In this document: positions 17,545 to 18,045 of the stretch, piece after piece
Layout: each line of letters starts with the position of its first letter
Numbering within the stretch: the first letter of the stretch is position 1
Assembly (NCBI GenBank): GCA_050008465.1
Contig: JBEKMO010000037.1
Coordinates: 5,988-37,987, forward strand
Reading direction: 5' to 3'
DNA: 32,000 bases
DNA from: Bryobacteraceae bacterium
GTDB lineage: Bacteria; Acidobacteriota; Terriglobia; Bryobacterales; Bryobacteraceae
Made by a program: the position numbers and the translations under genes
Notes under the pieces: model-generated
The model's database searches: none
What the model saw: the letters and a program-made list of their open reading frames with translations, nothing else
Told to the model about the DNA's origin: nothing

Positions 17545-18045
17545 TCAAGCCTCCTTTGCCGGCCGGCAACAAAGCCCCTGGCCCTGCTGGCCCGCGCGAA
17601 GGCGGCGCATGCTGTCGGCCAGCAGCCGCACCGCTCGTACGACCCGCCGCTGGTCCGTCGCGCTCATCTCCCCGAGCAGCGCCGCGTAGTGGCGGTTGCA
17701 CATCTCATTGATCGTCGCGATCCGATCGCGTCCGGCGGGCGTAAGGGTCAGACGCACTGACCGCCGGTCGGCCGCGTCCACGGCCCGCTCCACCAGCCCG
17801 GCCTTCACCATCCCCTCGACGGTGCGGCTGAGCGTGCTGGTGTCGAGGTCCAGGGCGGCGGCGAGGCTGGTGAGCGAGAGCTCTGAGGACGACAGCTCGA
17901 GGAGCGCGTGGCACTGGGCCAGGGTGACGCCGCAGCAGGTGGTCTCTCCCTCGAGCTGCCGCACGACTTCCCGCTCCAGGACGCGGAGGTCCCGCCGGAA
18001 GTCCTCGACGGAGGCCTCTTTCGGATGCCCGGATCTTGTTTGCAT
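17545..18045 (-). CDS. MarR-type winged-helix regulator with two vicinal cysteine pairs; first gene of the hgcAB operon
   Basis: 166-aa ORF. MarR core: VTLAQCHALLELSSSELSLTSLAAALDLDTSTLSRTVEGMVKAGLVERAVDAADRRSVRLTLTPAGR. Cys37-Cys38 and Cys45 lie just before the HTH, and Cys159-Cys160 near the C-terminus. The stop (17545-17547) is 1 nt from the hgcA ATG. Confidence 0.88.
   Translation of the reverse strand: MQTRSGHPKEASVEDFRRDLRVLEREVVRQLEGETTCCGVTLAQCHALLELSSSELSLTSLAAALDLDTSTLSRTVEGMVKAGLVERAVDAADRRSVRLTLTPAGRDRIATINEMCNRHYAALLGEMSATDQRRVVRAVRLLADSMRRLRAGQQGQGLCCRPAKEA

Follow-up and report, generated by a model that had tools for sequence, protein, structure and literature searches.

A MarR-family regulator at the head of the hgcAB mercury methylation genes carries a conserved Cys-Cys/Cys-His cluster as a candidate sensory site

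We analysed a stretch of 32,000 nucleotides from a Bryobacteraceae bacterium (contig JBEKMO010000037.1 of assembly GCA_050008465.1, positions 5,988 to 37,987), referred to in the following as the window, in which a gene for a MarR-family regulator of 166 amino acids (17545–18045, minus strand) directly precedes the mercury methylation genes hgcA and hgcB. Of several possible explanations for the cysteines of this protein and for its position, we favour one in which it is an autoregulated repressor of the marR-hgcA-hgcB cassette and in which a cluster of cysteine and histidine residues at its hinge is a candidate sensor. Judged from sequence comparisons, this reading has, in our opinion, slightly better than even chances of being correct.

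The regulator belongs to the MarR family in sequence and in fold, and is not of the ArsR type. The protein, taken from the list of open reading frames (ORFs), exceeds the cut-offs of the Pfam models for this family (PF01047 / PF12802), with 46.8 bits for MarR_2 against 27 and 37.2 bits for MarR against 24.6. An AlphaFold2 model of the monomer, with a mean predicted local distance difference test score (pLDDT) of 79.4, has the canonical MarR topology (α1-α2-α3-α4-β1-β2-α5-α6), with predicted helices at residues 13–38 (α1), 42–53 (α2), 58–65 (α3), 69–81 (α4), 103–125 (α5) and 129–153 (α6), a wing at 85–101 and a disordered tail at 154–166. In a Foldseek comparison with the PDB, the top 50 matches were all members of the MarR family, with TM-scores of up to 0.83 relative to the target at sequence identities not exceeding 27%; the heme-sensing MarR protein PefR is among them. 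The winged-helix fold of MarR type that an earlier note on this sequence had proposed is thus borne out by Pfam and Foldseek, and the ArsR-type domain HTH_5 stays under its cut-off. The family comprises 1578 clusters at 90% identity (E ≤ 1e-10) and 355 clusters at 50% identity (E ≤ 1e-30).

Membership in other regulator families was considered and rejected. For ArsR/SmtB, HTH_5 (PF01022) gave 18.6 bits against a cut-off of 22 and NF033788 18.6 bits against 55; for AdcR/ZitR, the NCBIfam model NF038251 gave 28.5 bits against 175; for OhrR, the score was 17.9 bits against 200, and there is no cysteine before residue 37; for MerR, whose Hg(II) sensors combine an N-terminal HTH with a coiled-coil dimer and a Cys79/Cys114/Cys123 site, a match was found neither in Pfam nor in NCBIfam, and the fold is that of MarR. 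None of the NCBIfam equivalogs claims the regulator, the best matches (BilQ, SlyA, AdcR and others) being far under their cut-offs. Weak precomputed matches to PF01022 occur in many family members of the Deltaproteobacteria type (P0122, P0124, P0125 and others), so that surveys based on PF01022 may have counted some of them as “ArsR-like” hgcAB regulators, and some regulators of that name from outside the Desulfovibrionaceae may be members of this MarR family.

The regulator has cysteines at residues 37, 38, 45, 116, 159 and 160, and their codons could be read in the DNA (all on the minus strand). The Cys37-Cys38-x6-Cys45-His46 cluster is encoded at 17908–17937 (TGCTGC at 17937–17932, TGCCAC for Cys45-His46 at 17913–17908), Cys116 in helix α5 at 17698–17700 (TGC), and Cys159-Cys160 in the disordered tail at 17566–17571 (TGTTGC); the strings ETTCCGVTLAQCH and GLCCRP are both present in the protein. 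The cysteines named in the earlier note (Cys37-Cys38, Cys45 and Cys159-Cys160) are therefore correctly placed, while His46 and Cys116 had been missed. The same note had located the N-terminal cluster immediately before the DNA-binding helix, and this has to be corrected: in the model, Cys37 and Cys38 are in the last turn of α1 and Cys45 and His46 in the first turn of α2, not beside the recognition helix. Cys116 lies in the middle of α5, and Cys159 and Cys160 are in the disordered tail, with a pLDDT below 50 for residues 156–165.

When orthologs of 36–95% identity were aligned, the residues that are invariant outside the DNA-reading head were Cys37, Cys38, Gln44, Cys45, His46 and Glu50; the α1 motif FRxxLRxLER is also strongly kept. 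Unbiased conservation figures were obtained from 150 representatives, the best 50%-identity clusters of an index-free hidden Markov model (HMM) search. Among these, Cys37 is present in 145, Cys38 in 126, Gln44 in 144, Cys45 in 143, His46 in 134 and Glu50 in 133, and a Cys-Cys pair at the α1/α2 junction in 139, so that this pair is indeed conserved among orthologs. The 73 hgcA-linked loci described below, for which conservation is partly circular for a reason given later, have Cys37 in 72 cases and Cys38, Cys45 and His46 in all 73. Cys116 is clade-specific, being found in 64 of these 73 loci and in 61 of the 150 representatives. The C-terminal tail varies in length as well as in sequence: it carries a Cys-Cys pair in 48 of 72 hgcA-linked orthologs, separate or single cysteines in 20 and none in 4, and among the 150 representatives the corresponding numbers are 71 with a pair, 51 with other cysteines and 26 with none. 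Of the two vicinal pairs originally described, the N-terminal one, as part of an essentially invariant CC-x6-C, can be retained, whereas the one in the tail is not kept as a pair. The signature of the family is Cys-Cys-x6-Cys-His plus an optional cysteine-bearing tail, and not two Cys-Cys pairs.

The coupling of the regulator to hgcAB is also conserved. A scan in which each GTDB species was represented by a single genome yielded 181 relatives of the regulator, of which the best 80 loci were analysed, with the linkage scored by tblastn using HgcA and HgcB from the window. In 73 of the 80 loci the regulator gene is immediately succeeded by hgcA in the same orientation, and in 72 of these 73 hgcB comes next; the sole hgcA-linked locus without hgcB (L071) ends inside hgcA. 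Among the seven loci without hgcA, one (L070) ends 89 nt after the regulator gene and another (L043) is a frameshifted fragment. The hosts include Bryobacterales and other Acidobacteriota, many Spirochaetota, KSB1, Wallbacteria, Opitutales, Desulfobacterota (Syntrophus, Syntrophorhabdaceae, Desulfobulbaceae), Clostridia/Syntrophomonadaceae and others, and a linkage that extends over so many phyla does not reflect a chance neighbourhood. The same order of marR and a CdhD(HgcA) gene recurs on independent contigs from metagenomes or metagenome-assembled genomes (MAGs; L081/L082, L086, L087, L090), with 4-nt overlaps between the genes and a Fer4 hgcB gene in the case of L081/L082. On another contig, a gene for an Rce1-like CPBP intramembrane protease (L085:1126–1905) sits between the regulator and hgcA.

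In the window, hgcA (16521–17543, minus strand) encodes the corrinoid protein of mercury methylation, with 416 bits for NCBIfam HgcA_corrinoid (cut-off 275), the cap-helix motif NVWCAAGK and a cysteine-rich N-terminus, MSKSGCGCGCG. This N-terminal tail (17511–17543, minus strand) precedes the conserved TWRDVLGG core, and N-terminal extensions with at least two cysteines (CGCG, CCC, CC...CC) occur in HgcA of 37 of the 73 MarR-linked loci, as counted with a rough start-codon rule. The ferredoxin gene hgcB (16226–16504, minus strand; 2x[4Fe-4S]) scores just under the cut-off of NCBIfam HgcB_ferredoxin (94.3 bits against 99) and matches Pfam Fer4_7 and Fer4; its product has the C-terminal sequence CADACNCG instead of the vicinal Cys-Cys usually described for HgcB.

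At the marR-hgcA junction (17541–17556, minus strand), the Shine-Dalgarno sequence of hgcA (AAGGAGG, 17556–17550) lies within the 3' end of the regulator gene, 6 nt upstream of the hgcA ATG (17543–17541), which is separated by a single A (17544) from the regulator stop codon (TGA, 17547–17545). From this arrangement the earlier note had argued for a dedicated role of the regulator, and the wider comparison supports the argument, as hgcAB follows directly in the 73 loci and the stop and start codons overlap or nearly touch in most of them. By the rough start-codon rule, the two genes overlap or are separated by no more than 10 nt in 60 of 73 loci, although about 15 of the 60 are implausibly long overlaps due to over-extended starts under a “first ATG” rule, so that overlap lengths are approximate. 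An ATGA overlap is found in about 18 loci. Around half of the loci have no close same-strand ORF after hgcB. A recurrent fourth gene was not found in this position, where the ORFs are heterogeneous (four loci with a short-chain dehydrogenase/reductase, three with C_GCAxxG_C_C and otherwise isolated cases), which makes three genes the conserved unit. The regulator and HgcA are correlated in their pairwise identities (r = 0.77, a value reached by 0 of 999 Mantel permutations), which fits inheritance or transfer as one cassette.

A sigma-70-type promoter is predicted in front of the regulator (18055–18084, minus strand), with TTGACA at 18084–18079, an 18-nt spacer and TACAAT at 18060–18055. It matches 11 of 12 consensus positions, with 0.2 such sites expected in shuffled sequences. 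The regulator ATG follows 9 nt after the −10 box without a Shine-Dalgarno sequence, for which reason the transcript is probably leaderless or nearly so. Two putative operator sites are found here: O1 (18056–18068; ATGTATAATACAA on the minus strand) has one mismatch to TTGTA-N3-TACAA and overlaps the −10 box, and O2 (18040–18052; TTGTGTTATGCAA on the minus strand), at a distance of 16 bp from O1, contains the regulator ATG (18045–18043). The 11-bp core of O1, TGTA-N3-TACA (18057–18067), is the only core match in the window, and O1 and O2 are its only good operator sites. A weaker third match (TTGTATCCTATAA, 30412–30424) lies far from the operon and is probably due to chance. The palindrome noticed before at 18055–18073 (ATTGTAT-N5-ATACAAT) is real and overlaps O1, but it is centred 2 bp off the centre that is conserved in the family.

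The same arrangement is seen upstream of the regulator in unrelated phyla, where TTGACA is followed by repeats of TTGTAtaaTACAA. Within 120 nt upstream of the regulator, the core TGTA-N3-TACA reaches 5.2 occurrences per kb as compared to 0.014 per kb elsewhere in the loci, a difference of about 370-fold. With two mismatches allowed, at least one operator site is present in 62 of 72 loci and two or three in 39; of 42 pairs of adjacent sites, 39 are spaced by 16 bp from centre to centre, and TTGAC occurs 15–16 nt before the first site in 35 of 46 loci. A second promoter or operator in front of hgcA was looked for in 73 marR-hgcA spacers, and just one operator-like site was found. As these spacers are mostly overlaps or at most 10 nt long and hold this one site in all, hgcAB is most likely expressed from one repressible promoter in front of the regulator.

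The gene just upstream, for an extracytoplasmic function (ECF) sigma factor (18091–18725, minus strand), ends close to the promoter of the regulator, with just 6 nt between its stop codon and the −35 box. It is broken in the window by an in-frame TAG at 18485–18483 (TAC in L001) and by a 2-bp insertion near 18380. Its ortholog (L001:2198–2872) is intact and encodes 224 amino acids with a cysteine-rich C-terminal tail (CAVSNDHQGTPVCQRKCGSC), a feature reminiscent of CorE-like ECF sigma factors, whose C-terminal extensions sense metals (PMC8999054). In another member of the Bryobacteraceae (SPRUCE_635; L002, 6001–7122) the cassette looks decayed: only HgcA residues 219–289 are matched downstream of the regulator, and an ECF sigma factor fragment lies just upstream of it in place of promoter and operator.

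The position of the Cys-Cys/Cys-His cluster within the fold can be compared with that of a known metal site. An hhalign alignment to S. pneumoniae AdcR, using a sequence identical to that of PDB 3TGN, has a probability of 96% and places Cys45 on Glu41 and His46 on His42. Cys116 falls on His112 of AdcR or within one helical turn of it, the alignment being ambiguous here because of a poorly determined 3-residue gap. The Zn(II) ligands in AdcR/ZitR are Glu24, His42, His108 and His112 (site 1) and Cys30, Glu41 and Glu107 (site 2) (PMC6372160). Of this set, the regulator retains His42 alone, in the form of His46; it has Cys45 where AdcR has Glu41, and Thr111, Ile112 and Cys116 at the ligand positions of α5. 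We infer that the conserved cluster lies at what is the allosteric hinge in a metal-sensing MarR, thiolates having taken over from histidine and glutamate. By analogy with AdcR, residues next to each other in the cluster probably belong to two neighbouring sites and do not share a single ion.

In most relatives without hgcA downstream, the junction motif is displaced or changed (TCCxGVS, CSGVT, CCGGSGVT) and Cys116 is missing. In a sister branch (L063, L066, L077, L088/L089 and L092) the regulator gene is directly followed by one for an S-adenosylmethionine (SAM) methyltransferase of about 210 residues (Methyltransf_11; L063:6497–7126, L066:6434–7117, L077:6344–7096, L092:1334–1960 and L088:686–1192), and these regulators carry the same kind of operator. 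The best NCBIfam match of the enzyme is to the DVU_1556 family (80 bits, cut-off 155), and arsenite methyltransferase models reach 55–58 bits (cut-off 263). A C-terminal ENCC(A/S)xSC motif is common to the four full-length enzymes (L063, L066, L077, L092); contigs L088 and L089 end before this region. The enzyme may be an uncharacterised metal(loid) methyltransferase. One regulator family thus appears to control two methyltransferase systems that are unrelated to each other but both have vicinal cysteines. In combination with the cysteine-rich N-terminus of HgcA in the window and in 37 of the 73 loci, this is circumstantial evidence for a thiophilic metal(loid) theme. “Putative redox-active” C_GCAxxG_C_C proteins are encoded beside both operon types, after the methyltransferase in one locus (L066:7111–7560) and after hgcB in three.

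In the mechanism that we favour, marR-hgcA-hgcB would form a single transcript, which dimers of the regulator would repress by occupying both palindromes and obstructing RNA polymerase. Sensing would be the task of the Cys-Cys/Cys-His cluster, aided in some clades by Cys116 and by the cysteines of the flexible tail; the cluster would be placed where the dimerisation lobe meets the DNA-binding lobe, at the hinge at which AdcR and ZitR bind two regulatory Zn(II) ions. Vicinal C-terminal cysteines handle Hg(II) in MerA, MerT and HgcB. As soft thiolates replace the histidine and glutamate ligands of AdcR, the likeliest effector would be a thiophilic metal or metalloid, in the form of As(III), Hg(II) or a methylated compound, for example methylarsenite, MAs(III), or methylmercury (MeHg). 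Its binding would bring the recognition helices closer together or further apart and thus alter the affinity for DNA, with either release of the repressor or stronger repression as the outcome.

Several points weigh against this reading. The homologous site in AdcR is a co-repressor site, and from this analogy metal-induced derepression is not implied. The CC...CH motif was one of the two peptide patterns used in the genome scan, which makes its conservation in the 80 loci partly circular. As neither Cys116 (61 of 150 representatives) nor the tail cysteines (absent from 26 of 150) are universal, a general site can only be CC-x6-CH. A site of the Cys3His type could hold a structural Zn(II) or an Fe-S cluster instead of a toxic metal. 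Finally, in strains with other regulators, Hg is reported to induce hgcA weakly if at all.

One alternative is a thiol redox switch of the OhrR, MosR or HypR kind, in which Cys37 or Cys38 would form a disulfide with Cys45, or with a tail cysteine of the partner subunit, upon exposure to oxidants or oxygen, so coupling the expression of the oxygen-sensitive HgcAB to the redox state. Many MarR proteins are thiol-based redox sensors, several cysteines of the regulator are conserved and one of them is in a flexible tail, and redox gating of hgcAB would make sense in the Bryobacterales, which include aerobes. Nevertheless, we consider such a switch unlikely. The OhrR model scores far below its cut-off, as given above, and there is no cysteine at the N-terminal α1 position used by OhrR; disulfides would leave the invariant His46, Gln44 and Glu50 unexplained; and the hosts are for the most part Spirochaetota, syntrophic Desulfobacterota and Clostridia, which we take to be strict anaerobes. 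In addition, the known switches derepress upon oxidation, and this would turn on an oxygen-sensitive enzyme at the wrong time.

We judge it just as improbable that the cluster holds a constitutive cofactor, either a structural Zn(II) or an Fe-S cluster which senses O2, nitric oxide or the iron/sulfur status in the manner of IscR and NsrR. A set of three cysteines and one histidine is typical of [2Fe-2S] regulators and of tight zinc sites, the position is homologous to that of the Zn sites of AdcR, and the hosts are largely taken to be anaerobes rich in Fe-S proteins, with a ferredoxin encoded in the operon itself. However, direct neighbours such as Cys37/Cys38 and Cys45/His46 rarely ligate a single centre, and Glu41 and His42 of AdcR serve two different ions. 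Also, the fourth ligand would not be fixed, since Cys116 and the tail cysteines vary in presence and spacing, which is unusual for an Fe-S protein.

An organic effector tied to methyl transfer, that is, a corrinoid or heme bound via cysteine and histidine, or SAM or S-adenosylhomocysteine (SAH), with the cysteines acting as axial ligands or lining a pocket, is quite improbable. It would agree with the preference of MarR proteins for organic ligands at the hinge pocket, with PefR as one of the structural matches, with methyltransferases being encoded in both operon types (the corrinoid-dependent HgcA and the SAM-dependent enzyme) and with the response of an unrelated regulator, ArsR2 of strain ND132, to SAH and arsenic (bioRxiv 10.1101/2022.10.17.512643). 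Yet no motif or domain match for binding of cobalamin, heme or SAM was found in the regulator with Pfam and NCBIfam, a vicinal cysteine pair is not a feature of such sites, and the CC-x3-C motif of the sister-branch methyltransferases themselves points to a thiophilic substrate. It is even less probable that the protein is no sensor at all and, as a plain autoregulator, buffers hgcAB with cysteines kept for folding or stability: no ligand is known for it and some family members lack Cys116 and the tail cysteines, but stability alone hardly explains why four ligand-type residues at an allosteric hinge are invariant down to about 36% identity.

The hinge cluster as sensor of a repressor thus remains our preferred explanation. 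It can be extended to a bolder one, which we offer tentatively and would ourselves rather doubt than defend: that the family is the first thiolate-based metal(loid)-sensing branch of MarR, and that its effector is the physiological substrate or product of HgcAB and of the CC-motif SAM methyltransferase. If this were true, the identity of the effector would reveal the native function of HgcAB, and the mercury methylation genes would be signal-regulated in a large share of the environmental methylators.

The association of the family with hgcAB is not new. In 112 genomes from several phyla, McDaniel et al. 2020 (mSystems, PMC7438021) found hgcAB to be immediately preceded by a “conserved putative transcriptional regulator”, which had been defined from five MAGs of Stordalen Mire permafrost (a Deltaproteobacterium, two Acidobacteria, an Opitutae member and an Actinobacterium) and for which transcripts were detected in situ. 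This regulator very probably belongs to the same family as the MarR protein of the window, because the closest loci (L001, L003 and L004) come from fen_ MAGs of Bryobacterales and Myxococcales, groups that are named in that study, and the MAG set is of the same kind as the one analysed there. For two isolates, Geobacter daltonii FRC-32 and Dethiobacter alkaliphilus AHT1, a gene of the MarR family upstream of hgcA was noted by Zhang et al. 2023 (PMC10349881). In a profile search for members in cultured methylators, made with orthologs from Deltaproteobacteria and Firmicutes, the top 120 matches were exclusively proteins from MAGs and metagenomes. A search of the literature, limited by the library available, retrieved no description of the MarR assignment with its cysteine signature, of the AdcR-like site or of the operator. 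With respect to novelty, it is therefore these elements that stand, and not the link as such: what we add is a putative repressor of the MarR family that is dedicated to hgcAB and whose thiolate-rich site is found in the position known from AdcR.

How hgcAB is controlled and what the native role of HgcAB is are long-standing questions in mercury biogeochemistry, and the abundance of hgcA is a poor predictor of methylmercury production. The only hgcAB regulator characterised is an ArsR-like protein confined to the Desulfovibrionaceae. The family described here is attached to hgcAB across many phyla that are prominent in metagenomes from peat, sediment and groundwater. For these, the question of control is reduced to a defined protein, a candidate site of four residues and a predicted operator of 29 bp, with a signal that can be tested in vitro and an operator motif that can be searched for in metagenomes. 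The parallel branch with SAM methyltransferases carrying a Cys motif hints at a common thiophilic substrate.

The regulator shares features with several known systems and differs from each of them. Like the regulator of McDaniel et al., defined as lying immediately or 1–2 genes upstream of hgcAB, it adjoins hgcAB on the upstream side in the window and in 73 of 80 loci; that paper (PMC7438021) gives no family, residue analysis, operator or mechanism. In Pseudodesulfovibrio mercurii ND132, where transcription of hgcAB answers to arsenic and SAH (bioRxiv 10.1101/2022.10.17.512643), ArsR2 (DND132_1054) is likewise encoded directly upstream of hgcAB, co-transcribed with it and rich in cysteine, but it is an ArsR/SmtB protein (PF01022) with Cys47/49/86/88 and is confined to the Desulfovibrionaceae.

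With respect to site chemistry, the nearest parallels are the As(III) sites of type 2 and type 3 ArsR proteins, made up of a vicinal cysteine pair and a third cysteine, as in AfArsR (Cys95/96/102) and CgArsR (Cys15/16/55), and the vicinal pair that alone senses MAs(III) in SpArsR (PMC11868830). As in AfArsR and CgArsR, vicinal cysteines and a nearby third one are found at helix ends, here as CC-x6-C at the end of α1 and the start of α2. The likeness is restricted to this chemistry, as their fold is ArsR/SmtB and that of the regulator is MarR. OhrR and E. coli MarR, in which Cu(II) drives the oxidation of Cys80, share the MarR fold and have regulatory cysteines, but these cysteines are at other positions and have neither a conserved histidine partner nor a vicinal pair. 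In the position of the site the regulator resembles AdcR and ZitR (PDB 3TGN, 5YHX, 6FI9), MarR proteins with a metal site at the α1-α2/α2/α5 hinge. The regulator differs from them in having thiolates for histidine and glutamate, a vicinal cysteine pair and a cysteine-bearing tail, and in its putative target, which is hgcAB and not zinc uptake.

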